In this document: positions 6,566 to 56,770 of the stretch, in pieces
How the letters are laid out: each line of letters opens with the position of its first letter
How positions within the stretch are numbered: position 1 is the stretch's first letter
NCBI GenBank assembly: GCA_963752285.1
Contig: CAVVXN010000005.1
Span: forward strand, 2,175,284 to 2,239,283
From: an uncultured Planctomycetota bacterium
GTDB lineage: Bacteria; Planctomycetota; PLA2; JAEUHO01
DNA length: 64,000 bases
Direction: 5' to 3'
Notes under the pieces: generated by a model
What the model was told of the DNA's origin: nothing
The model's database searches: none
The model's input: only the letters and a program-made list of their open reading frames with translations
Translations under genes and position numbers: made by a program

Positions 6566-8112
6566 CAGCTCTTCGCCTTCCTCCGCGCCTTTCGCGCGGG
6601 CGGCGTCGTGCTCTCGCGCTTCGCCTTCCGGCCCGTCACCGTCTCCCAGCGCTCGACGATCACGTCGCGTGTAGGCGGGGTCGAGCTCCATGAGGAACGC
6701 GTGCCGGCCGAGTCTGCTCGCAGGCCATGAGCGTCGAGCCCGCTGCCGCCGAAGAGATCGAGCACGTTCTCGCCCGGCCTCGAGGAGTACTGGATCGCGC
6801 GCGCCGCGAGCTCGACGGGCTTCTCGGTCAGGTGGACCATCGTCTGCGGCGTTGACCTTCTTCACGCTCCCAGAGGTCCGGCGTTGTTCGGGGCCCGAAG
6901 AACTCGTGCGCGGCGCCTTCCCTCCACGCCGTAGAAGCACCACTCGTGGGCACCCATGAAGTCCTTGCGCGTGAGCACCGGGTGCTGCTTGTCCCAGATG
7001 ATCGCCTGGGAGAAGTAGAAGCCCGCCTCCTTCAACGCCGGCGGGTAGTTCGCGACGTTCGCGTAGCCGCCCCAGATGTAGAACCGCGCGCCCGGGCAGC
7101 AGCACGCGCGCGGCGTTGCCGAACCAGGCGCGCAGCAGCTGCTCGAACTCCTCGTCGGAGACGAAGTCGTTCTCGAGCGGCCGGTCCTTCGCCCGCATCT
7201 TCCGGTGCGTGGGCTTCGCCTTCTCGGGGTGCCGCGCGAGGTCGAGCCCCTGGTGGTGGCGCTTCTCGTGCGCCGTGAACGACGAGAGCCCGGCGCGCGA
7301 TCGCGTTGTTCGAGCGCGGCTCGACCTTCACGTTGTAGGGCGGGTCGGTGTTCACGCAGATGGATCGGGCGCGCCGGCGAGCAGCCGGTCGAGGTCCTCG
7401 CGCGCTGCCGCGTGTCGCCGCAGAGCAGCCGGTGGTGGCCGAGCACCCAGAGGTCGCCGGGCTTCGTGACCGGGTCGTCGGGCGGCTCGGGGACCGGGTC
7501 CTCGACGATGTCGCCGGCCTCCTGCGGGAAGAGCTTCTCCAGGTCGCCCCGGAGGCCGGAGAGGAGCAGCGCGTCGCCGAGGTCGGGCAGCGCGCCGACG
7601 ACCTCCTCGAGCAGGCCGAGCGCGTCGGCGGTCCACTCGCCCGAGATGCGGGGGGAGTTGAGAGCGAGGTTGAGTGCCTTCTCCTCGGCCTCCTCGACGT
7701 CGATCACGACGACGTCGGTCGCCTCGACGCCCTTCCCCTCCAGCACCTTCAACCGCTGGTGAGGATCACGCGCTCGCCGCCCTCCTGGACGGCCCGAACC
7801 ACGGCCCGGAGCGTCGCGCGGAGACGGCGGACGGCGACGGTGCGGGGGGCGGGCGCGGTCACGGCGCCGCCTCCTCGGGGCCCGGAGCGGGGCCCAACCC
7901 CGGGGCGTCGGAGTCGGGTCGGCGAGCCCGGCTGCCACGTCGGCGACGTCGGGGAGCAGGCGGCCGAGGAGGTAGAGCGCCTCGAGCGCCGTGCGGGACC
8001 AGGGCGGCGACGGGGCGCCGCGCGCGTCAGGACGATCCGCTCCCGTCCTCCTCGACGGCGCGGACCAGGGCGTAGAGCGCACCTTCGCGGACTTCAGTCC
8101 CACGGCGATCAC
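6565..8112 (-). pseudogene. ParB-domain fused N6/N4 DNA methyltransferase, frameshifted and 5'-fused to a Phd remnant
   Basis: Three frames carry consecutive parts of one gene. First comes the ParB domain (HQRLKVLEGKGVEATDVVVIDVEEAEEKALNLALNSPRISGEWTADAL...GDLWVLGHHRLLCGD). Then the DPPY motif (NTDPPYNVKV, 7032..7355). Then motif I (PVELAARAIQYSSRPGENVLDLFGGSG, 6565..6840). The N-terminus is a Phd-like remnant joined by the 1218..1563-equivalent deletion. Confidence 0.6.
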
Positions 8113-8628: not shown

Positions 8629-8753
8629 ACATGAATACTACTGGCGTGCGATCAACGCGCGCCCCGATTTGTAATTCGGCCTGGGACTAACTGCCCGGTA
8701 GACGCGCACGGCGGGCCGCACATATCATCTCAAGTGTTGATTAGGAGGAAGTC

Positions 8754-14253: not shown

Positions 14254-14540
14254 GGGATCTCCGGGGGCACCAGACCCGCCCTGGGCCAGTGTCGTCCCGG
14301 CGAGCGACGCCGAGTTCGTAGGCGCGCAGGTTCAGGTGTGTCAAGCGTCGCTCAGCGGCGCCCTCCAACAGCAGGGATATGCCGATGTCGGGATCCCGTA
14401 CTCGCCCGGCTGCTCTCTCCCGTACCAGCACCCGTACCAGCACGGGCGCGTGATTCGGCGTGGATCGGGGAGTTATCGGGGAATCCCGTGCTGGCACGCG
14501 TGGCGCCGGAATCGGCCGCCAGGGCGCATTTCATCGGGGT

Positions 14541-14609
14541 CAGTGGCGCAGGTGCCACCCCGGTTTCCTAAACCGGGGGTCGCAGGTTCGAGTCCTGCCG
14601 GGGATACCA
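14541..14609 (+). tRNA. tRNA-Arg(CCT) 3' portion (D-arm to CCA); 5' acceptor strand absent, so attL/attR-type remnant
   Basis: T-arm gcagg-ttcgagt-cctgc. Acceptor 3' strand cggggat, discriminator A, then CCA at 14607..14609. Anticodon stem ccggt/accgg with loop ttCCTaa. D-stem gtgg/ccac. The 7 nt at 14534..14540 (tcggggt) cannot pair with the 3' acceptor strand. Confidence 0.55.
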
Positions 14610-14776: not shown

Positions 14777-15928
14777 GTGACCACCGGGCGCGGACACCGG
14801 TGGTCGTTTCAGAGCGCGAGGCCCATGAATCGGGCCCTCCTGGAGGTGTCGCCCCGCGGAGGTACATCAGCGCTCCCACGGAACCCGTACGGAGCTCTCG
14901 GAATGCCCTGGCTGAGGTCGCGCGTCGAACGGTCCACCGGTCTCCAGACCTGGTCCATCGAGTGGCGCGAGGGCGGCCGGACGGGAAAGGTCCGCCACCG
15001 CGTGCTGGGCCCCGTCACCGAGCAGGATGCGCAGTACGAGCTCGCCGCCATGAACGCCGGCCGCCGCACGCGCCGCGAGAAGCGCGTCGTCGCCCCCGCC
15101 CGCGCCGTCGAGGACTACCTGCGGCATCTCAAAGCCTCCGGCCGCCGAGAAGGCACGGTCGCCCACGACCGCGACAAGCTGAAGCCGCTACTCGACGCGT
15201 GGGGCCACCGGCCGCTCTCCGAGTGGGCCCGCTCCCACCTCGAGGCCCTCCTGGCCGACCGCGGCTGGGCCACGACGCGCGTGCGGAACGCCGTTGGCGT
15301 CTACCGCCGCTTCGTTTCCTGGTGTGACCAGGTCGGCATCTCGTGCGGTGACTTCGTGGCGGGATACAAGCCCCCCCGCCTCCGCCCCCCGGACGAACCC
15401 GAGGCGCTCGCGGCCGAGCAGGCACGCCAGCTCCTCGACGCCGCCCACGACCACGCCCTGGAGGTCCCCGTGGCCCTCGCCCTCCTCGCCGGCCTCTCCC
15501 GCGGGGATCTCCGCGCCCTCACGTGGAAGGAGGTCGACCTGGACGCCGGCCTCATTACGCGCCCCCGGCACAAGACCGGCAGGAGGCTTCGCCTCCCTAT
15601 CTCGCCGCCGCTGCGTGACGTCCTGGAGCGCCACCGCCGGCGCGCCGGCCCCGTCTGCCCCCGCCTCCCGAAGTCCGATTCTTCGCTCTCGAAGTCCCTC
15701 CACCGCCTCTGTGACCGGGCCGGCATCCCCCGCGGCGGCTGGCATCGGCTGCGCCACACGGCCGCCACCCTCCTGGCGGCCGCGGGGACGGACGTGGCCA
15801 CGATCGGGCGGATCCTCGGGCATCGGCCCGGGAGCGTCGTCACCCTGCGGTACCTTCACACGGACGATGAACGGCTGAGGCAGGCTGCAGACGCCGTCGC
15901 CGACGCGGTTCAGCGGGCCCAGGTATAG
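14777..15928 (+). CDS. tyrosine recombinase / phage integrase
   Basis: C-terminus HRLRHTAATLLAAAGTDVATIGRILGHRPGSVVTLRYLH shows the R..HxxR..Y catalytic signature. It lies 170 bp downstream of the tRNA fragment. The true start may be internal (MNRALL or MPWLRS). Confidence 0.8.
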   Translation: MTTGRGHRWSFQSARPMNRALLEVSPRGGTSALPRNPYGALGMPWLRSRVERSTGLQTWSIEWREGGRTGKVRHRVLGPVTEQDAQYELAAMNAGRRTRREKRVVAPARAVEDYLRHLKASGRREGTVAHDRDKLKPLLDAWGHRPLSEWARSHLEALLADRGWATTRVRNAVGVYRRFVSWCDQVGISCGDFVAGYKPPRLRPPDEPEALAAEQARQLLDAAHDHALEVPVALALLAGLSRGDLRALTWKEVDLDAGLITRPRHKTGRRLRLPISPPLRDVLERHRRRAGPVCPRLPKSDSSLSKSLHRLCDRAGIPRGGWHRLRHTAATLLAAAGTDVATIGRILGHRPGSVVTLRYLHTDDERLRQAADAVADAVQRAQV

Positions 15929-17002: not shown

Positions 17003-17318
17003 CTATCGCACTTCGCCTTCGAACAGCACCCGCCCGTCCCGGTCGTGGAGCGTCACCCGCACGACCTCCCCCTCGGGGAGCCGCCTGTCGATCCGGATCT
17101 GCCTCGCGACCTTCCAGACGACGAGCCGGTTCCGCGCCTCCTCGTGCGCCTCCTCTTGGGAGGTGAAGAACACGGGCCGCTGGTCCATCGTGAGGCCGCC
17201 AGCGAACTGCAGACGGAGCCCGTCGATGGTCGTCTCGAAGCAGACGTCCGGCAGCGTCGAGTGGGGTCCTAGGGGGTCCATCACGACCCACAGCGGGGTA
17301 GCTGCGTCGATCCTCATC
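17003..17318 (-). CDS. small protein encoded by repeat family X (complete copy A)
   Basis: MRIDAATPLWVVMDPLGPHSTLPDVCFETTIDGLRLQFAGGLTMDQRPVFFTSQEEAHEEARNRLVVWKVARQIRIDRRLPEGEVVRVTLHDRDGRVLFEGEVR. High GC3 codon usage. The same sequence recurs at 20511, 22295 and 23355. Confidence 0.5.
17003..17318. repeat. Repeat family X copy A (full, ~315 bp)
   Basis: Shared left end ...cgaacagcacccgcccgtcccggtcgtggagcgtcacccgcacgacctccccctcggggag...gatccggatct. Confidence 0.65.
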
Positions 17319-17541
17319 GCGCCCCCTCCCGGCCGTCGTCGGCCTCGAAGCCGTGGAAGACGCCGCGGGCGTACAACGCCCGGTGATCCCGGGCCCAGCG
17401 CGCGCAGGCCTCGTAGCCCATGGCGGCGGCGATCCGGGCCACCGCCGGGCGGTCGAGCATGTTCGTGAGGCCCGAGAGCCGGACGGCCTCGAGCCCCTCG
17501 CGGACGTCGGGGGGCACGCGAACGGCGTCGCGCTCGGTCAT
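17314..17541 (-). CDS. small conserved hypothetical protein, paralog B
   Basis: MTERDAVRVPPDVREGLEAVRLSGLTNMLDRPAVARIAAAMGYEACARWARDHRALYARG, paralogous to 9541..9740. Confidence 0.5.
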   Translation of the reverse strand: MTERDAVRVPPDVREGLEAVRLSGLTNMLDRPAVARIAAAMGYEACARWARDHRALYARGVFHGFEADDGREGAR

Positions 17542-17544
17542 CGT

Positions 17545-18000
17545 GCCCCCCCTCGCAGGCGAGCATGGATCCCAGCGAGGAGAACCGGCTGGTGAAGGGC
17601 TGGCGAAGCACGCGGCCGACGAGTTGGGTCATCGCACGGGCGGATCCGGTGTTGCTGAGGCTCACAAGGATGTAGGCATAGGGGCAGTCCCAGCCCTCCT
17701 GCAGAGCGCTCTTCGTGATGATCCAGGTGATGGGGCAGCCCTCGTCGAGCAGGTCGATGCCCTCGATGTCGTCCTGTTTGGATGACTTGATTGCGATCTC
17801 GGCCTCAGCCACGCCCAAGCGGGCCATGAGGTGCTTCTTCACGTCCTCCGCGTGGACGAAGCCTCTGCCCTGCTGGTCCTTCCCGGTCCGCTCGACCTGT
17901 ACGAGGACGATGGGCCGCAGCGGGGGCTTGGCTTCCGCGCCCTCGGAGTGATCGTCGACCGCGCAGTAGACCACGTCATAGAGCGAGAGCCCACAGTCAG
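17545..18000 (-). pseudogene. SF2 helicase C-terminal (RecA2) domain fragment, Type III-res/T3RE-like
   Basis: High-GC3 minus-strand reading GIDLLDEGCPITWIITKSALQEGWDCPYAYILVSLSNTGSARAMTQLVGRVLRQP matches motif VI QxxGRxxR. No helicase motifs I-III lie upstream, and the fragment is truncated at 17545 by the paralog B module. Confidence 0.5.
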
Positions 18001-18049
18001 GGGTCGCGTGGGGCTTGCGAAGTACGCCCTGCGCGAGAGGCTTATCGGA

Positions 18050-18646
18050 TTCATCAATGCCCAACAGGACGTCCAGACCGAGCATGTATTCCGGGATCTC
18101 GTGGTCAGGAAGCGCATCGCCTTCTACCTTGAGTGCATCGAGTGCCGCTTCGAGCTTCCGCCTGAGATCGAGCTCCGCAGCACACACCGCCTCACGGACG
18201 ACGACAACCGCGAGGTCGCGAAGACGCTCTTCGAGTGGGCGGCTGCCGAGGAGTTCAACGAGTACGAGCGCGAGGTTGCGCTGTGCATCGACAAACACCC
18301 CGAGGTGCTCTGGTGGTATCGCAACGCGGTCGGACGGGACTGCTTCTCGATCCAGGGCTACCGGCGTGATCGCGTGTACCCCGACTTTGTGGTTCAGAAG
18401 GGCACCGAAGGCAGGCCCGCCCCCGCCGTGGTCGTCGTGGAGGCGAAGGGCGAGCACCTCTCCGGCAACGTCGACACGGAGTACAAGCGTGACCTCGCGC
18501 AGTTCTTTGAGAAGGTCGGACGCCACGTCACATGGCAGGAACTTGGCGAGGGATTCGCTGACGCTACGTTTCGTATCCAAGTGCTAGATCAGGATGATGC
18601 AGGCGCTTGGAAGGACGGACTGGACGCGGTATTGCGGAGTGGATGA
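18050..18646 (+). pseudogene. PD-(D/E)xK nuclease domain fragment (C-terminal domain of res-like helicase-nuclease), on the strand opposite the helicase fragment
   Basis: ...WWYRNAVGRDCFSIQGYRRDRVYPDFVVQKGTEGRPAPAVVVVEAKGEHL carries the PD..(D/E)xK motif. The N-terminal part of the listed 271-aa ORF is antisense of the helicase fragment. Confidence 0.5.
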
Positions 18647-24436: not shown

Positions 24437-25179
<743 letters not shown>

Positions 25180-25685
25180 CCCTCCACGAAACCGGGGCCA
25201 CCCCACTCACGCCCCGCGGCTGGCGGGCAGCGCGCGCTGCCCTCGAGGCCAACCCGGCCCTCGCGACCCCCGCCTGATCCGCGCGCGCCGCCCGCCAAGT
25301 CCCCTCGCGCCCGCCGACGCCCGGAAGATCCCTGCGGATCTCGGCGCCCTGTAGTTCACCGGTCTTTTACGGCGCGACGAAGGCGAACGTGCGGAGGACA
25401 GGCGCTTTTCGACCCCCTACGTGACCACGTGCCTTGGGCCCGGGGGGCCGATGCGGAACCAGTCCGCCCGGCCGTCTCAGCGCGTCCTGACGCCGGGGAT
25501 CTCGGGCAGTGGGTCGCGTCTGTCGGCCCGGCTGCGCGCCGGATGGGTCAGGCGCTTGTTGCCGTGGCCCGTGACGATGTCACGCAGCGGTGCGAAAAGC
25601 GCCTGACCCCGTTCGCCCCCGATGGTCGAGGCCGATCCGCGACGGAGGGCACCGGGAAACCGGATCCGGTGCCCTCCCCGGGCTC

Positions 25686-27083
25686 CTACTCGGCATCGAT
25701 CCGCGCGAGGTACCAGACCCAGTCGGTGGTCGTCTCGTCCTTCGTCGCGAGCCGGGCATCACCGCCCACCACGATGTCGCCCGCCTCGTCGACGAGGAGG
25801 CCCCAGGCATCGTCGTATGCCATGACATTGAGCGGTCCAGCGACGCCGTAGCTGCCAAAGGTCGTATCGAGCGCCCCGTCTTCGTCCAGTCTCAGCACGT
25901 ACACGTCCCGGGCGCTCGCGCTCGTGCTGGCGTTCCACGCCATGCACGCCAGCAAGACCTCACCGCCTGACCCTAGCCCGATGGGTGCTATTGAAGTGAG
26001 GCTGTCGTAGCCAGACAGGGCAAGGGTCACATTGCCGTCGGTACCGAAGTCCTCGTCGGCGAGCAGCTCGCTGTCCGACGAGACCCCGAAGCGCCGCACG
26101 AGCACCTCAATGCTGCTCGCCGTCCCCATCGGGTCCACCACCACAATCCGGTCGTCGGCGTCCACGGCGACGGACGTAGGGAGCGAACCCGTTCGCAGGA
26201 CCTCGTCGAGCAGCGAGCCGCCCGAGGAGAGGAGGATCAGACGTGAGACCACGTTGTCGACCGTAATCCCGCTTTGGGCAGCAATTACGATGCTCCCGTC
26301 GCTCAGGACCGCCATGGCGTTGCGTCCGACCTTGTCCTCGTTGGCGGTCCCACCCTTCTTCGAATTGTTGGGGTCGTAGACCCAGTAGCCGTCCGTGCCG
26401 AAGGTCGTGTCGAGGTCACCGTCCGCCGCGAGCCGCGCCACGAAGATCTCTCTCCGGCTGGGGTAGTTCTTCGCCGGCGGCGGAGCACCCGCCTCCCCGG
26501 CGACGAGGAGCTCCCCACTCGTCAGGACGACCATCGAGTAGACCCTGGTGAACGTGGACTGGGGCACGTCGAGACGGACGATGCCATCCGTGCCGAAGTC
26601 CGTGTCGAGGTCGCCGTCCTCTGTGAAGCGCGCGACGGCGCCCAAGACCTTCGAGACGGTCTTGGCCTTCCTACCCGAGCCCGTCGTCGTCGTTACGAGC
26701 GAGAAGCCCCCAGCTACGGCCTCGTCGTCGGCCGTCAACGCCAGCGCCTGGAGCGACGCGTTCTCCGGATCGGAGAAGAGGCTGGCGACGCCGCCATCGC
26801 CGAAGCTCGTATCCAGGGTCCCGTCGCTGTCGAAGCGCCGGAGCTGCCAGATGCCGATACTCGACCAACCCGCCTCCACGTAGCCACCGTCCGATGTGGC
26901 GGCCAGACCCGTACAAGGGGTCACCCAGTCCAGGTCCCCGGTCGTGGCGATCCCGTCCGTCCCAAAGCCATCGTCCAGGTCCCCGGCCCCCGCCCAGCCG
27001 AGCGTGGCTCCCAGTGTCACAAGCCCCAGAACGCCCAGGGTCCACACGCTTGCCCTCATCACTCGACGCTTCGTCCAGTCCAT
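25686..27083 (-). CDS. secreted delta-60 repeat (FGTDG) beta-propeller protein
   Basis: Signal MDWTKRRVMRASVWTLGVLGLVTLGA. Repeated LDxxFGTDGxV motifs (8 or more). Confidence 0.7.
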   Translation of the reverse strand: MDWTKRRVMRASVWTLGVLGLVTLGATLGWAGAGDLDDGFGTDGIATTGDLDWVTPCTGLAATSDGGYVEAGWSSIGIWQLRRFDSDGTLDTSFGDGGVASLFSDPENASLQALALTADDEAVAGGFSLVTTTTGSGRKAKTVSKVLGAVARFTEDGDLDTDFGTDGIVRLDVPQSTFTRVYSMVVLTSGELLVAGEAGAPPPAKNYPSRREIFVARLAADGDLDTTFGTDGYWVYDPNNSKKGGTANEDKVGRNAMAVLSDGSIVIAAQSGITVDNVVSRLILLSSGGSLLDEVLRTGSLPTSVAVDADDRIVVVDPMGTASSIEVLVRRFGVSSDSELLADEDFGTDGNVTLALSGYDSLTSIAPIGLGSGGEVLLACMAWNASTSASARDVYVLRLDEDGALDTTFGSYGVAGPLNVMAYDDAWGLLVDEAGDIVVGGDARLATKDETTTDWVWYLARIDAE

Positions 27084-27274
27084 CGTCACTTCTCCGTGGG
27101 CAACGACTGCCCTGTCTCCAGATGGCGGATCGCGGCGAGAAGCGGACACCAGCAGGGAAACCGGCCTCCGGCCCGGGACCTTCGTTCGGATCGCACCCCC
27201 GCCGGCCATGGGGGGATACGGGTGGCGGGCGGCGAGCCGCGGGCGTAGCATCCGCCGCTCTCGGGAGGCCCGGA

Positions 27275-27850
27275 ATGGGCGAAGGAGCAAGGTCCGACGA
27301 CGATGCCGAACTGGTCCGCCGCGCCCAGGCCGGAGACCAGATCGCACTGCGAGGCCTCTTCGAGCGCCACACTGAGTTCCTCCGTGCATTCGTGCGCGCC
27401 CGGCTTCCCGCGCTCGTCCGGGGCAAGGTCGCGCAGTCGGACGTGATTCAGGAGGCGTACCTGACAGCCTGGGGGAGATTCCCCGACCTCGCGGCGACGG
27501 ACGCGGACGGATTCCGACGCTGGATCACCCGGATCGTGGACCTCAAGATCCGCGAGCAGACACGGCGACACCTCGGGACGCAGCGGCGTGCAGCAGCCCG
27601 TGAGGTCCCCATCGCCCCCGCGCAGGGCGGACCCACCGATGTGGCCGACCCACGGTCCTCCCCGTCCATGCGCGCGGCAGGTGCCGAGCGGCAGGCAAGG
27701 CTCTCTCGGGCCCTCGAGGGGGCCGACTCGGCAGACCGCGCGCTTCTGGACATGGTGCACCGGCAGGGCCTCACGTATCCCGAGATCAGCACTCTGCTCG
27801 GCATCCAGCCCGACGCCGCGCGCACCCGCGAGACGACCCCCAGGGGATCC
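27275..27850 (+). CDS. ECF (sigma-24) RNA polymerase sigma factor; 3' end uncertain
   Basis: Region 2 reads DAELVRRAQAGDQIALRGLFERH...VIQEAYLTAWGRF. Region 4 reads LLDMVHRQGLTYPEISTLLGI. The ORF runs on to 28027 over the opposite-strand EVE-like gene, so there may be a frameshift or an earlier real stop. Confidence 0.55.
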
Positions 27851-28268
27851 AGCCCTCCTGCGACCAGAACCGGACCTCCCGAAGCACCGTGCAGCCGAGG
27901 TCCCAGGAGGTCCCGTCCGGCGCGTCGAGCTCCGCGCCGCGGTAGCCACGGATCCGGGATAGAAAACGAGCCTCGTCCGGGTCGCCGTTCTTCCAGCCGA
28001 AGGTGGCCCAGGCCTCCGCGAGGCTGAGGGTGCCGAAGTGGGCGAAGAACCCGTACCCCGCGATCGCGTGGTGCGGGGCCTTCAGCCGAAGGAACACGGG
28101 CTCCCCCGGGGTCATTCGCTTCATCGGCCGCGTGGAACGGGGCGACCAGAAGTTCACCTCGTCGACCCTGCCCGCATCCGCTCGCGAGGACAGGTAGTCG
28201 AACCACGCCTGGTCGGTCAGGGCGATGAACGGGGCTACGGTCCCCATGGCCAGGCATGATAGGGCCAT
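27786..28268 (-). CDS. EVE/PUA-like domain protein (tentative)
   Basis: High GC3. MALSCLAMGTVAPFIALTDQAWFDYLSS...VNFWSPRSTRPMKRMTPGEPVFLRLKAPHHAIAGYGFFAHFGTLSLAEAWATFGW resembles the EVE pattern (W...R..mk.GD.vffY...IvG). The start is ambiguous (28349, 28268 or 28247). Confidence 0.4.
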   Translation of the reverse strand: MALSCLAMGTVAPFIALTDQAWFDYLSSRADAGRVDEVNFWSPRSTRPMKRMTPGEPVFLRLKAPHHAIAGYGFFAHFGTLSLAEAWATFGWKNGDPDEARFLSRIRGYRGAELDAPDGTSWDLGCTVLREVRFWSQEGWIPWGSSRGCARRRAGCRAEC

Positions 28269-28623
28269 GGCGGACTCCCTGTCAGGTCTCCAGGCCGCGG
28301 CCGTCGCGTTCCGGGACGAGCGCGACTGGAAGCAGTTCCATCGTCCCAAGGACCTGGTCCTTGGGCTCCTTGCCGAGGCGGGCGAGCTTGCCGAGGTCGT
28401 CCTCTGGAAGTCCGAGGACGAGCTGGCCGGCGCGCTCCTCGAGGGCCCTCTCCAGGAGCGGCTCGCGGAGGAGATGTCCGACGTCCTGTTGTTCCTGCTC
28501 TACCTCGCGGAGCATTCGGGTGTGGACCTCGCGCAGGCCTGCGTGGCGAAGCTCGAGGCGAACGCCCGGAAGTACCCCGTCGAGAAGGCGAAGGGCTCCG
28601 CGCGGAAGTACACGGAGCTCTGA
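28267..28623 (+). CDS. MazG-like nucleoside triphosphate pyrophosphohydrolase
   Basis: LQAAAVAFRDERDWKQFHRPKDLVLGLLAEAGELAEVVLWK...LAEEMSDVLLFLLYLAEHSGVDLAQACVAKLEANARKYP is the MazG/NTP-PPase core (EEXXE and DVL motifs). Confidence 0.7.
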   Translation: MADSLSGLQAAAVAFRDERDWKQFHRPKDLVLGLLAEAGELAEVVLWKSEDELAGALLEGPLQERLAEEMSDVLLFLLYLAEHSGVDLAQACVAKLEANARKYPVEKAKGSARKYTEL

Positions 28624-28643
28624 AGAACGGGCGCGGAGGGGAG

Positions 28644-30563
28644 ATGACGGCCGGAGACTTCGACAGCTGCGGCTGGCTCTCGGACCTGCCCACGTTCTCG
28701 GGGACGGAGCCGCGCATCGTTCGTCTCCGGCTCGAGTCCTTCGTGCGGGACGCGAGCGCCGAACAAGTCCGCGCCTGGGACGACTCCATCCCCTTCCTGC
28801 AGCGGGAGTGCGACGAGCTCGTCGTCTGCGACCCCGGCGCCCGCACCTTCACCGCGATCCTCGAGTACCAGCTCCCGCTCGAGTCCCGGCGTCCGGACGT
28901 GATCGTGCTCGAGAACGGCGTGGTCGTCGTCCTTGAGGTGAAGGGGAAGGACGCCGCGAACTCGGCCGACCTCGACCAGACGCATGCGTACGCCCGAGAC
29001 CTTCGATGTTACCACGCCGAGTGCGAGACGCGCGACGTGATCCCCGTCCTCGTGCCGACCCGTATGCGAGGCGTGGAGCGCGTGCAAGACGGCGTCGTGG
29101 TGGCCTCGCCCGACCGGGTGCACCACGTGCTGCTCAGGTTTGCGCGAACGTCCCGGGGCTCTCATCTCACTCCCGAGGCCTTCCTTCGCGGCGACGCGTA
29201 CGCGCCTCTGCCCACGCTCGTCCGCGCGGCGCGCGACCTCTTCGAGCACGGCGAGCTCCCTCGGATCAAGCGTGCCCGAGCGGCCACGGACCCCGCCGTA
29301 GAGAGGATCTCCAGCATCGCGCGCGAAGCGCAGGACACCGGCACCCGCCGACTCGTCCTGGTGACAGGCGTTCCCGGCGCCGGCAAGACCCTCGTGGGCC
29401 TGCGCGCCGTCCACGCGCGCGAGCTCGACGGCCTGGCGGTCGCTCGCGCGGGGGAAAGACCGCGGGCCCCCGCCGTCTTCCTGTCGGGAAACGGTCCGCT
29501 GGTCCAGGTCCTCCAGGACGCCCTGAAGGACGCCGGCGGCGGCGGGAAGACCTTCGTGCGGGGCGTGAAGGACTACGTGCAGTGGTACACGAAGCGCCCG
29601 AAGGCGGTGCCGCCGGAGCATCTCGTCGTGTTCGACGAGGCCCAACGCGCGTGGGACGCGGCACAGGTCGAGCGCAAGCACAGCCAGGGCGAGGCCCATG
29701 GCCGGTCGGAGCCCGAGCACTTCATCGAGTTCTGCGAGCGCATCCCGCAGTGGTGCGTCGTGGTCGGGCTGATCGGTAGCGGCCAGGAGATCCACGCCGG
29801 AGAGTGGGGTGGCCTCGTCCAGTGGCGGCACGCGATCGAAGGCGCTCGATCCCCATCGGACTGGACGGTGCACGCGCCGGTCGACGTCGAAAGGCGGCTT
29901 TGCGGATCGAACGTGCGCACGAGGTGGGAGCCGGCGCTGCACCTCGACACCGAGATCCGGTTCCACCTCGCCAGGCGCATCCACGAGTTCGTCGAGGCCC
30001 TCCTGGACGAGGGCGACGCGGCGAAGGCGGCCGCTCTCGCCTCGATGCTCCGGAACGAGGGGCACGGGCTGCGGCTGACTCGCGACCTCGATCTGGCGAA
30101 GGCCTACGCGAGATCCCGGTATGCCGACCATCCCGAGGCGCGCTACGGGCTGCTCGCCTCCTCGAAGGACAAGATCCTGCCGCGCTACGGCGTGGACAAC
30201 ACGTTTCAGGAGACGAAGCGCTTGAAGGTCGGCCCCTGGTACAACGCCGGCGACGAGAGCCCCTATTCGTGCCGCCGGCTCGACGCGGTGGCCACCGAGT
30301 TCGCCAGCCAAGGACTCGAGCTCGATCTCTCGATCCTCTGCTGGGGCAGCGACTACGCGCGGAAGAACGGTGGGTGGACGGTGGAGCGGGCCGGCCGGAC
30401 GCGGTACATCGACGATACGCTGAGCCTGCGCCGGAACGTCTATCGGGTGCTCCTGACGCGTGGCCGCGACGGGACGATCGTCTTCGTGCCACCTGACCCC
30501 TGGCTCGACGAGACGGCCCGGTTCCTCCGGGCAGCCGGCCTTCCCGACCTTGACGCTTCGTGA
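28644..30563 (+). CDS. DUF2075 / Schlafen-like nuclease-ATPase (N-terminal PD-(D/E)xK + P-loop NTPase + UvrD-like C-terminus)
   Basis: PDVIVLENGVVVVLEVKG is the nuclease motif. LVLVTGVPGAGKT is Walker A. HLVVFDEAQRAWD is Walker B. C-terminal YRVLLTRGRDGTIVFVP. 639 aa at host-like GC. Confidence 0.7.
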   Translation: MTAGDFDSCGWLSDLPTFSGTEPRIVRLRLESFVRDASAEQVRAWDDSIPFLQRECDELVVCDPGARTFTAILEYQLPLESRRPDVIVLENGVVVVLEVKGKDAANSADLDQTHAYARDLRCYHAECETRDVIPVLVPTRMRGVERVQDGVVVASPDRVHHVLLRFARTSRGSHLTPEAFLRGDAYAPLPTLVRAARDLFEHGELPRIKRARAATDPAVERISSIAREAQDTGTRRLVLVTGVPGAGKTLVGLRAVHARELDGLAVARAGERPRAPAVFLSGNGPLVQVLQDALKDAGGGGKTFVRGVKDYVQWYTKRPKAVPPEHLVVFDEAQRAWDAAQVERKHSQGEAHGRSEPEHFIEFCERIPQWCVVVGLIGSGQEIHAGEWGGLVQWRHAIEGARSPSDWTVHAPVDVERRLCGSNVRTRWEPALHLDTEIRFHLARRIHEFVEALLDEGDAAKAAALASMLRNEGHGLRLTRDLDLAKAYARSRYADHPEARYGLLASSKDKILPRYGVDNTFQETKRLKVGPWYNAGDESPYSCRRLDAVATEFASQGLELDLSILCWGSDYARKNGGWTVERAGRTRYIDDTLSLRRNVYRVLLTRGRDGTIVFVPPDPWLDETARFLRAAGLPDLDAS

Positions 30564-39079: not shown

Positions 39080-39244
39080 CGAGAGGAGCGGAGAGCGCGT
39101 CGCGGCCGGATGTGGCCCGCGCGGGGGCCCGCGCGGTCCACTGACCCGTTCCACCGCGAGGCGTCGGCTCGGACGGTGCGGGAACGAAAGGGGGGGCGGC
39201 CTCGCGGCCGTCCCCCCGCGCACATCGCGCATCGTGTAGTGGGT

Positions 39245-41222
39245 CTAGTCGTTCCCGTGGTGACCGTGGTGACCGTGGTGACCGTGGTGACCGTGGTGGC
39301 CGTGGCCATCGCAGTCGCAGTCGCACAGCGTCCGGAGGTAGCCGACGGAAGCGCTGTGCTTGTCGTTGTAGTAGAGCCTCTCGAGCGGATCGAGCGTGGA
39401 CTCCACGACGTCGTGCAGCGGGCTCTCCCAGTCACCGGGATGCTGGAAGTTGCTCAGGACGTAGACGAAGCCGTTCAGGTCGTCGATCGGCTGGAGGCCC
39501 GTGGATTCCGCGCCCGCCGGGCAGGAGAGGATCCGGCTCAGCTTCTTCGTGTCCACGTTGTAGGCCCAGAGGAAGTTGTTGACGTGGTTGCCGCTGTCCT
39601 CGCCGACGAACAGCGTGCGCATCCCTTCGCTGAACTTGACGTTGTCGGGGTTCGCGATCTTGTCCGCGTTCGCGCTGTTGCCGAGGGCGTCGCGTACGGC
39701 GAGATCCTCGCCGATCAGCGCGTCGGGCGCCCACATCGACGTCGGGACCCACTGGCTGTGGATGGAGTGCCCGTCGGAGTCGGGCTGGTGCCCCTCGAGC
39801 TGGATCTCATAGACCGCGCCGGCGACCGGCCCCCCGACGTGGATGTCGGTGGTGCCGTCCGTCATCGACTTGTAGATGTACGACATCGCGACGTACGCAC
39901 GCTTGTCGGCGCCGTTCACCGTCATGCCTTCCATCTTCGAGAACCCCAGGGAGGCGCCGACGAGCGCCGCGTACCGGTGCGTCTCGAGGAACGCGGCCGC
40001 CTTCTCCATGCCCGGCTTCAACCGGACCCAGTTGTTCGCGCCGCTGTAGCGGATCTTCGTGTAGCTCGAGTCGCTCGGATCGACCTTCGAGACGTCCATG
40101 ATGTCGGCGGCCGTGATCCCGCCGTCCACGAGAGCCTGGATCTCGTCGCTCGTCGTGTGGCCGAGCCAGATCCAGGAGAGGTCGGCGGAGCCGGGGCCGA
40201 CGCCGGAGGTCTGCGTCCACTTGGCCGCGTAGAGCGTGCCCGCGGACAGGTCGCGCTTGTGGTCCGCCACGAACAGGAACAGCCCGCCGTTCGTGGCGTC
40301 GTCGCCCATAAGGACGGTCCGCTCGTCGGGCAGCACCTGGACCACCTCGTGCGAGATGCGGCCGAGACAGTAGTGCTTCACGATGCTGGCCGTGCCGTCG
40401 GCGTGGACGGTCACCTCGGGGATGTGCCCGTAGTCGTAGGGGTTGGCGGCGCTGGGGTCGCCGAACAGGTTCGTGCTGAAGGCCTCGAGCTGCGCGTTGC
40501 TGGCGAGGGTCGCGTCCGGCTCGTACTCCTCGCTGGACAGGTGCGTGCCCCAGGGCGACGTGCTCGCGGCGCAGGTGATCCAGAGGCCCCGCGCGTCGGA
40601 CGTGTCCACGTTGTGGTAGCTGACGAGGCTGAGCTCGCCCGTGCACGAGTCCTGGTCGAGGGTCAGCACCGCGATCGGCGACGGGAGCTTCCCGTACATC
40701 GAGTCGCCGTCGTCGTTGTAGGAGACGTACTCGAACTGCACGACGGCGAAGATGCGCTTGCACCCGTTGCGGTGGGAGTGCGCGCCATCGAGCTGGATCA
40801 GGGACATCCCGTCGGGGCAGTCGGAGAAGAACTGGTGCGAGTCGGCGGACGTCGGATCGACGATCGGCACGCCGTCGATGTCGTAGCAGCCCCCGGCCAC
40901 GATGGTGCCGCCGCCGGTCTTCGGCACCACGTCGCCGGTCAGGAAGAGGCTTTCGTACGCGAGGTCGCACGTCTCGGCGTCGTGCGGTCCCCGGATCGTC
41001 GTCAGCGAGGACGCGACGTAGGTCGACGCCATCTGCGTCGGGTCGGAGAGCGACGGCGCGTCCATCGAGTCGAACACGTAATGGGCATGTGCGCCGCCGG
41101 GCGTCGCCTGCGCGACGTCGGGCGCGCTGCCGAGCCAGGCGGCGACGAGAAGCAGGGAAACGACGGTCAGCAGGGTGCTGCCGAGCGAATGTCGGCGGAA
41201 CGGACCAACGGGGTGCGGCATG
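39245..41222 (-). CDS. PhoX-like (DUF839) secreted phosphatase with C-terminal (HHG)n His-rich tail
   Basis: Signal MPHPVGPFRRHSLGSTLLTVVSLLLVAAWLGSA. CAASTSPWGTHLSSEEYEP resembles the PhoX motif. The tail GHGHHGHHGHHGHHGHHG is encoded by a 9-bp tandem repeat at 39249..39300. Confidence 0.6.
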
Positions 41223-55889: not shown

Positions 55890-56770
55890 CTAATCGATCC
55901 AGGCAGGCGGGGCGATCCGCGCGACGATCCACACGGCCACGCCGGAGAGGACGAGCGCGCCCGCGGTCCCGAGGAGCCCGCCGGCCCGACCCGTCCGGAC
56001 GAGGAGGACGCCGCCCACCGCGGCGAGGGCGAGGAGCACCGCGGCCGCGAGCGGGAAGGACGTTTCGCCGGGGTGGTTCAGGTACGCGTGGCCCGACACC
56101 AGCAGGCCCGTGAAGACGAGCGAGACGGGCGCCGCCGCGGCCGGGAGGACCTCGCGCGCGAGGGGACCGCGCGCGCCGGCGAGCGTGGCACCGAGCGTGG
56201 CGCCCGCAAGCGCCCCCGCCACCCCGCCGAGCACGAAGGAGCCGGCGAACCGCGCGTACGCCGCCGCGGTCGCGCCGATCGCGAGCGCGAGGGGCACCGC
56301 CGCCGCGAGGCCCGGGCGGCGCCCCGTGACCGGACGAAGGGCCGTCCACAGCGCGCTCGCGAGGAGGGCTCCCGCCGCCACGTGGACCGCCTCGAGGCCG
56401 GGCGAGAGCCCCCGGTGGGGCGCCACGACGAGCCACGCCGCCGCACCCCCCGCGAGGGCGCGAAGCAGTCCCCGGAGCGCGAACGGCAGGCGGCGGGCCT
56501 CGACGACGCCGGCCAGCCACCCGAGCGGCGCGAACCAGAGCGTCCACCGCCAGGCGTCTTCGCCGGGCGCGAGGGGGAGAGACGGCCACGGCACGAGCCG
56601 CAGCGCGCCCACCCCGAACGCGAAGACGAGGACGAGCGCTGCGGCGGGTCCGAGAAGCGCCCTCGCGCCGACACGCCGGGCGAGGAGCGAGAGCACGAGG
56701 ACCCCCGCCGCCGACACGGCGCCGGGGAGCAAGACGGCCCCGAGCGCCTCGCTCTCGTACGTCACGGCAG
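55890..56770 (-). CDS. hypothetical integral membrane protein
   Basis: Multiple hydrophobic segments. The start is uncertain. Confidence 0.35.

Follow-up and report, generated by a model that had tools for sequence, protein, structure and literature searches.

Co-oriented genes for a MazG-like pyrophosphatase and an Nhi-like nuclease-helicase beside a PUA-HNH gene remnant at a worn island edge in an uncultured Planctomycetota bacterium

Organization of the locus

We analyzed a 64-kb stretch of contig CAVVXN010000005.1 from an uncultured Planctomycetota bacterium (here called the window; overall G+C content, about 70%), in which a first-pass annotation had proposed a three-part defense module made up of a divergently transcribed EVE/PUA-like reader, a MazG-like nucleoside triphosphate (NTP) pyrophosphatase, and a DUF2075 nuclease-ATPase. 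All three open reading frames (ORFs) are present where that annotation had placed them. Two of them, both on the plus strand, encode a MazG-like all-alpha NTP pyrophosphatase of the DCTPP1/RS21-C6 type (118 amino acids; 28267 to 28623) and a nuclease-helicase of 639 amino acids (28644 to 30563); the third, on the minus strand, is the 3'-truncated remnant of a gene for a PUA-superfamily, ASCH-like reader domain (27831 to 28247), recognized through its homology to PUA-HNH proteins.

The stop codon of the mazG-like gene and the start codon of the DUF2075 gene are separated by 20 bp, and a Shine-Dalgarno-like sequence, GGAGGGGAG, occupies this spacer (28635 to 28643, plus strand) directly before the ATG; no terminator-like sites were found between 27600 and 30900. 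The co-orientation and short gap on which an operon had been postulated were thus borne out, and GGAGGGGAG and the lack of a terminator make it likely that the two genes form one operon. The divergent ATGs of the reader remnant and the mazG-like gene lie 19 nt apart in a head-to-head start region (28244 to 28269), and the single CCATGG palindrome said to be shared by both starts resolves into two separate CCATGG sites 20 bp apart (28244 to 28249 and 28264 to 28269), one for each start codon. Upstream of the remnant, the minus strand carries a promoter-like, sigma-70-like site (28285 to 28256). The G+C content at third codon positions (GC3) is 0.89 to 0.91 in the three genes, with a host-like 0.91 in the remnant, versus 0.93 to 0.96 in the core genes to the right. 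That the genes are resident rather than imported had been read from their G+C content, but this deduction is insecure, because they sit at an island edge marked by an integrase and insertion sequences (ISs) and their GC3 is slightly lower.

The nuclease-helicase and the pyrophosphatase

The product of the downstream gene matches PF09848, the former DUF2075 family now named SLFN-g3_helicase, with an E value of 2.8e-58. Its N-terminal PD-(D/E)xK domain (residues ~40 to 160; 28761 to 29123) contains D85, E98, and K100 (28896 to 28943), and the DUF2075 helicase domain, of superfamily 1B (SF1B), spans residues 236 to 616 (29349 to 30491) and includes Walker A (G242 to T249; 29367 to 29390) and Walker B (F330 to R335; 29631 to 29651) motifs. 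The three nuclease residues and both Walker motifs, which had already been pointed out in the first-pass annotation, are invariant in an alignment of 25 homologs. In the AlphaFold2 (AF2) model of the protein, which has a predicted local distance difference test score (pLDDT) of 84, the core of the N-terminal domain (residues 39 to 138) adopts an alpha-beta-beta-beta-alpha-beta arrangement that holds D85, E98, and K100, and the top Foldseek matches of the model were RecD, SLFN11, SLFN14, Upf1, RecD2, Dna2, and Dda. From the invariant motifs, the coverage of the homologs, and the modeled fold, we judge the gene to be intact and its predicted product to be a PD-(D/E)xK nuclease joined to an SF1B helicase.

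More than 7,800 homologs were scored, the nearest of which show 65 to 67% identity over 96 to 99% coverage, and the family is patchily distributed across phyla. The protein also matches the PADLOC model PDC-S41, which was built from defense-island candidates, over nearly its full length (E value, 1.3e-130; 434.8 bits; residues 35 to 625 against positions 31 to 633 of 657), and this match places the gene as a further member of a catalogued candidate family. The name PDC-S41 was not mentioned in the literature that we searched.

The upstream protein was correctly called as MazG. It matches PF12643 (3e-14; 53.5 bits against a Pfam gathering score of 27) and, over residues 9 to 118, mouse DCTPP1 (PDB 6sqw/2a3q; E value, 1.9e-26), and the metal-binding motifs ExxE (E37 and E40) and EExxD (E68, E69, and D72) can be read directly from its sequence; it is predicted to be an ordinary pyrophosphatase homolog of the DCTPP1/RS21-C6 type. 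DCTPP1 favors deoxycytidine triphosphate (dCTP) and 5-modified dCTP, and since this specificity is known, the protein encoded in the window may by analogy act on noncanonical dCTP.

A truncated reader gene and its deletion junction

The description of the divergent gene as an EVE/PUA-like reader stood as to the PUA superfamily and failed as to EVE. Two of the three original domain calls, MazG and DUF2075, thus hold. The ORF had no match in Pfam (EVE included), NCBIfam, or PADLOC, and searches of PDB sequences with the ORF, both as a single sequence and as a 35-sequence profile, returned only noise. The surviving domain was nonetheless modeled with confidence (pLDDT, 89) as a PUA-superfamily beta-barrel, and the predicted fold is nearest to ASCH, not EVE. 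Homologs of the ORF are proteins of about 308 amino acids whose N-terminal part matches it and whose C terminus is an HNH_2 domain (PF13391; seen in loci L013 and L037). When two full-length homologs were compared with the window by tblastn, only their residues 1 to 128 were matched (28238 to 27825), and the HNH segment was absent across all 64 kb. What remains is the N-terminal 128 to 139 residues of a putative type IV (modification-dependent) PUA-HNH restriction endonuclease of about 308 residues, and the ORF runs on to a stop codon at 27786 only through sequence antisense to a neighboring gene.

That neighbor, which lies outside the module, is a 3'-truncated gene for an extracytoplasmic function (ECF) sigma-70 factor on the plus strand (27290 to 27829; start approximate). 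Residues 144 to 312 of its ORF match positions 1 to 176 of the 189 in NCBIfam model TIGR02984 (7.7e-29); beyond 27829, where this match ends, the ORF continues as antisense of the PUA gene. The sigma and PUA homologies therefore meet within about 5 to 10 nt around 27830, with each ORF continuing antisense to the other, and because both homologies end together there, the arrangement is best read as the product of a deletion between two convergent genes that clipped the ECF sigma gene and the PUA-HNH gene alike. An assembly error was considered and ruled out: L090, an independent short-read contig obtained in another run, spans 25071 to 28623 at 99.8% identity and crosses the junction without gaps, so the junction is real.

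We also considered whether short database homologs (146 to 161 amino acids) might constitute a natural family of stand-alone readers, and rejected this, since nearly all well-flanked metagenome copies are full length. Among 80 metagenomic loci carrying the reader domain, about 68 reach residue 306 to 308, and the remaining short copies are cut by contig ends, with L126 as the sole exception. Long-read assemblies of the same project carry frameshifts (in L089, for example, the DUF2075 ORF is split into 477 and 149 amino acids), and short homologs are for this reason poor proof of stand-alone readers. Judged by its sequence, the reader gene in the window is a pseudogene fragment, and this PUA-HNH copy would be unable to cut DNA.

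A public gene call at 27086 to 27760 on the minus strand, present in L089 and L090, corresponds to a 224-amino-acid ORF without a domain match. Because the plus strand at 27290 to 27829 encodes a clear ECF sigma factor, this call is probably on the wrong strand, an artefact common at high G+C content. The window holds a lesson for annotation in both respects, in that a pseudogene fragment had passed for a "reader" and the public call that covers the sigma gene apparently follows the wrong strand.

Gene neighborhoods of the three families

Conservation of the arrangement was assessed in two sets of loci, namely, 80 genomic loci from many phyla that carry DUF2075 genes, around which MazG-like genes were sought within 6 kb, and the 80 metagenomic loci carrying the reader domain. 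No relative was recovered when contigs were scanned with the DUF2075 protein alone; the alignment-based scan recovered them. Among these 160 loci and nine further look-ups, all three gene families were found within 5 kb of one another only in L013, and there in a different order; elsewhere, they occurred only as pairs, and an ordered triad with a stand-alone reader domain was found in none of the loci examined. The reader, MazG, and DUF2075 genes are not a conserved three-gene system. The co-occurrence anticipated in the first-pass annotation was found in part, in that DUF2075 genes do sometimes sit with MazG or PUA-HNH genes, but this holds for only a few percent of the loci, and a conserved, ordered set was not seen.

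In L013, a locus from a metagenome-assembled genome (MAG) of the Planctomycetales, the order is WYL regulator, DUF2075, hipBA-like genes, PUA-HNH, and a divergent MazG gene. The PUA-HNH gene starts at 8721 and the MazG gene at 8744, so that the divergent start codons are 22 bp apart in a tight layout like that of the window; the MazG gene overlaps a recQ gene by 4 bp rather than pairing with the DUF2075 gene, which is 2.6 kb off. Within this stretch (L013, 2966 to 10932), the WYL/WCX regulator stands directly 5' of the DUF2075 gene, a split HipA toxin lies between the DUF2075 and PUA-HNH genes, and the RecQ protein is complete, with DEAD, Helicase_C, RQC, and HRDC domains.

The pairwise links recur more widely. 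A Pfam-confirmed MazG-like gene immediately adjoins the PUA-HNH gene in 6 of the 80 PUA-HNH loci, in addition to L013 and the window; it is divergent in L106, downstream in L110/L112, L124, and L129, and upstream in L139, and the proteins of these six loci share 60 to 82% identity and so represent about five lineages. The PUA-HNH gene stands beside a DUF2075 gene in L013, L037, L135, L158, L170, and L173, as well as in the window; two of these (L013 and L037) belong to the 80 DUF2075 loci. Lutz et al. noted in 2019 that DUF2075 NTPases and RecQ-like helicases can have modification-dependent endonucleases as neighbors (PMC6765204). In L034 (2559 to 3518), L037 (5060 to 5968), and L054 (4169 to 5551), the HNH_2 genes beside DUF2075 encode another type of N-terminal domain, marked by an APHKPxLLLA motif, and in L037 a tandem pair of HNH_2 genes lies upstream of the DUF2075 gene.

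The most frequent neighbors of DUF2075 genes across the 80 loci were MutT/NudG-like NUDIX hydrolases and RecQ helicases. The NUDIX genes were found in nine loci, directly adjacent in about eight, and in L038 (2868 to 5156), from a Bathyarchaeia MAG, a single ORF of 763 amino acids fuses a DUF2075 helicase (242 to 604) to a MutT-like NUDIX domain (640 to 757). L043 contains a second DUF2075 paralog with a MazG-like gene starting about 10 nt after it, so that the order of the two genes is the reverse of that in the window. Because NUDIX genes are placed like the MazG gene of the window and one is fused to the helicase, these arrangements suggest, by analogy, that the pyrophosphatase partner of DUF2075 proteins has a function.

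Genomic setting

Homologs of the DUF2075 gene lie in variable regions, where their neighbors include toxin-antitoxin genes. A full-length homolog on an Exiguobacterium plasmid (34% identity) is found beside McrBC, an HNH gene, and a methyltransferase, and one on a Bacillus megaplasmid (34% identity) is found beside SIR2, HEPN, and a second DUF2075 gene; in L173 the neighbors are PUA-HNH, Mrr, and NYN, and in L174 they are Fic, an AAA_15/AAA_21 ATPase, PLD, and ParE.

Within the window itself, a tRNA-Arg(CCT) gene (14530 to 14609) lies about 170 bp ahead of a phage-type integrase gene (14777 to 15928; PF00589, 3e-17), and the pair resembles the left boundary of a genomic island. The 3' end of the tRNA-Arg gene was not found repeated (as an attR) downstream in the window, and the right border of the island is thus undefined. 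The roughly 10 kb after the integrase gene have a lower G+C content and contain four copies of a repeat (17016, 20513, 22288, and 23350) of 86 nt, reaching 242 nt between the copies at 17010 and 23344, which are probably the ends of one IS family, together with transposase pieces of the IS3 (24649 to 25179) and Mutator families. Two opposite-strand fragments of a type III restriction gene, res (17006 to 18643), match positions 362 to 472 and 736 to 851 of the PADLOC model REase_III, and the gene, which adjoins IS-end repeats, appears to be shattered and partly inverted. The PADLOC candidates PDC-S02 and PDC-M50A were matched within 14.5 to 25.7 kb. Because the tRNA-Arg and integrase genes, the IS copies, the res fragments, and the candidate matches adjoin it, we place the module at the worn right-hand edge of a defense or variable island.

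Discussion

We propose, with a probability of roughly one-half, that the locus is a worn island edge at which the genes for a MazG-like pyrophosphatase and an Nhi-like nuclease-helicase effector, probably cotranscribed, lie beside the stump of a PUA-HNH gene and would serve in phage defense. The defensive role that had been assigned to the DUF2075 gene is a reasonable reading, given the PDC-S41 match, the Nhi-like architecture, and the homologs found among defense genes; the three-part module built around it does not hold, as the reader is a PUA-HNH stump without its nuclease and the triad is conserved nowhere as an ordered set.

Nhi and Nhi-like proteins have been validated as anti-phage proteins that act on their own (bioRxiv 776245; bioRxiv 10.1101/2022.05.11.491447), and Nhi nicks and unwinds DNA in a manner dependent on the single-stranded DNA-binding protein of the phage (PMC12904381). 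Nhi from Staphylococcus epidermidis (SERP2475) and the Nhi-like protein of Millman et al. (2022) combine, as the protein encoded in the window does, an N-terminal PD-(D/E)xK domain with a C-terminal DUF2075/SF1B helicase in a single polypeptide, and the protein may by analogy be a stand-alone nuclease-helicase effector. The likeness seen here is one of architecture; a scan against PADLOC models (E value, <=0.01), in which PDC-S41 was the sole match, showed no sequence match to Nhi beyond the shared Pfam domain. The co-oriented MazG gene that precedes the gene in the window is undescribed for Nhi. PDC-S41 gives a match over the full length of the model, but its candidate definition includes no pyrophosphatase partner. 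SLFN11 and SLFN14, of Schlafen group III, belong to the same Pfam helicase family and are among the top structural matches, whereas the N terminus of the window protein is a PD-(D/E)xK domain and not the Schlafen tRNA-nuclease core; the prokaryotic Schlafens of papers from 2025 and 2026 are defined by that RNase core, which the window protein lacks. The MazG protein is homologous to DCTPP1 over its full length and keeps its metal-binding motifs, but at 118 amino acids it lacks the eukaryotic extensions, and DCTPP1 is not known for an association with restriction-type genes such as those next to it here. As for the remnant, VcaM4I/TspA15I, ScoA3IV, and ScoA3V (PUA/EVE/SRA-HNH enzymes; Lutz et al. 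2019) differ from it in possessing the HNH domain that is wholly gone from the window copy, and its reader domain, for which there is no Pfam model, resembles ASCH more than it does EVE or SRA.

The sequence data show which domains are present, which genes are whole or truncated, how they are laid out, and that the pairwise neighborhoods recur; anti-phage activity, substrates, and cooperation between the proteins are inferred. In this proposal, the helicase would load onto DNA that is foreign or aberrant (replication intermediates, for instance), and the N-terminal nuclease would nick or degrade it, much as Nhi does, while the pyrophosphatase would convert noncanonical, probably cytosine-modified, dCTP into dCMP. 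Such a cleanup could cooperate with the effector by starving phages that build modified DNA, or it could prevent modified or damaged bases from entering host DNA and so spare self DNA from DNA-targeting neighbors. The MazG gene was probably paired originally with the PUA-HNH enzyme, now predicted to be inactive here, a pairing that L013 still keeps.

Several observations weigh against this proposal. A MazG-like gene was found near a DUF2075 gene in just 2 of the 80 loci (L013 and L043), which is weak when taken alone; no MazG neighbor was found for any of three close DUF2075 homologs, and neither a DUF2075 nor an HNH gene was found near the three closest MazG homologs examined (66 to 71% identity), whose neighbors are metabolic, redox, and signaling genes, among them those for asparagine synthase, cupin, kinase, and cytochrome proteins. 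A rough Poisson estimate, which assumes one to three gene copies per 4 Mb and ignores phylogeny, speaks for the links between MazG and PUA-HNH and between DUF2075 and pyrophosphohydrolase genes, which are far above expectation (P of about 1e-6 or less), but the MazG-DUF2075 link alone is not far above it. The PADLOC scan of the nuclease-helicase (E value, <=0.01) returned the PDC-S41 candidate as its sole match and no validated system, and a profile of the DUF2075 family matched no solved structure by sequence. PDC-S41 is, to our knowledge, a single-gene candidate without experimental validation. Finally, the RecQ, MutT-like NUDIX, WYL regulator, and DinB neighbors would suit a role in genome maintenance equally well.

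One alternative, which we hold to be unlikely, is a chance juxtaposition: a housekeeping MazG, cleansing the nucleotide pool, and an unrelated, possibly defensive DUF2075 gene would have been joined, without a functional link, by rearrangements in an IS-rich region, with the PUA stump as debris. The deletion junction, which lies some 440 bp ahead of the MazG start codon, and the IS copies nearby are compatible with this, as are the rarity of MazG-DUF2075 adjacency, the varied neighborhoods of MazG genes among close relatives, and the partnership of MazG with RecQ in L013. The 20-bp spacer with its strong Shine-Dalgarno sequence and no terminator argues otherwise, and so do the independent tight pair, in reversed order, in L043, the occupation of the same place by a nonhomologous NUDIX pyrophosphatase in nine loci and its fusion in L038, and the pairwise recurrence of all three gene families.

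A second alternative, about as unlikely, is genome maintenance, in which MazG would clean up damaged or modified dCTP while stalled forks or damaged DNA would be the substrates of the DUF2075 nuclease-helicase, in analogy to eukaryotic SLFN11 at stressed forks. Such a role accords with the prominence of MutT/NudG-like NUDIX and RecQ genes among the DUF2075 neighbors, the 4-bp overlap of MazG and RecQ and the WYL regulator before the DUF2075 gene in L013, a DinB-family gene about 700 bp downstream of the module in the window, and the company that the closest MazG homologs keep. It accords less well with the variable regions in which DUF2075 homologs are found with McrBC, Mrr, SIR2, HEPN, toxin-antitoxin, and HNH endonuclease genes, with the patchy distribution of the family over phyla, with the match to a model derived from defense islands, and with the position of the window copy at the border of a decayed one.

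A working three-part system, in which a stand-alone PUA/EVE-like reader of 139 residues would detect modified bases and work together with MazG and the nuclease-helicase, is very improbable, for although the remnant keeps a confidently foldable PUA domain, a GC3 of 0.91, and a promoter-like site, although PUA-HNH and DUF2075 genes recur together, and although an isolated SRA reader is reported to have partly attenuated T4gt (data not shown in Lutz et al., PMC6765204), the HNH domain is missing from the window, essentially all well-flanked homologs are fusions of about 308 amino acids, the tail of the reader ORF is antisense to another gene, and no ordered triad with a stand-alone reader was encountered.

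The proposal of a cotranscribed pyrophosphatase and nuclease-helicase at a worn island edge admits a bolder and much more tentative extension, which we think improbable as it stands: that nuclease-helicases of the PDC-S41 type are two-component systems with a deoxynucleoside triphosphate pyrophosphohydrolase, for which a MutT/NudG-like NUDIX or a DCTPP1-like MazG protein would be interchangeable, and that they belong to a loose guild with PUA-HNH enzymes directed against modified-cytosine phages. Within such a guild, the pyrophosphatase would remove modified dCTP, the HNH enzyme would cut modified DNA, and the helicase-nuclease would degrade the products or replication intermediates. Should the MazG or NUDIX partner prove functional, the editing of nucleotide pools would be tied to a nuclease-helicase immune effector, which would parallel in bacteria the themes known from SAMHD1 and Schlafen proteins in the antiviral defense of animals and would provide an experimental handle on PDC-S41, a large family with homologs over many phyla. 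The recurring pairing of DUF2075 and pyrophosphatase genes merits follow-up, as does the ASCH-like reader domain, so far without annotation, that a widespread family of HNH endonucleases carries and that deserves a Pfam model and a test of its specificity.

Other features of the window

Three further features lie apart from the module. Between 2950 and 5900, about 3 kb have a G+C content of 47 to 50% inside a genome of 70 to 75%; the plus strand is strongly purine rich (GC skew, +0.31; AT skew, +0.27), and this segment has no plus-strand ORF of at least 150 amino acids and no Rfam match. Its flanks are phage-like, with an HNH gene (1922 to 2404) and duplicated ParB-like/DNA-methyltransferase-like fragments (1027 to 1746 and 6862 to 8112), and a foreign insert, a noncoding element, and an assembly chimera are all conceivable explanations. 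On the minus strand at 56147 to 56239, ARAGORN reports an irregular tRNA-like gene whose anticodon it leaves undetermined, with no Rfam match at the gathering threshold. At 39239 to 39310, in a coding-dense region, a 9-bp tandem repeat, GTGGTGACC, and its variants form about eight units.

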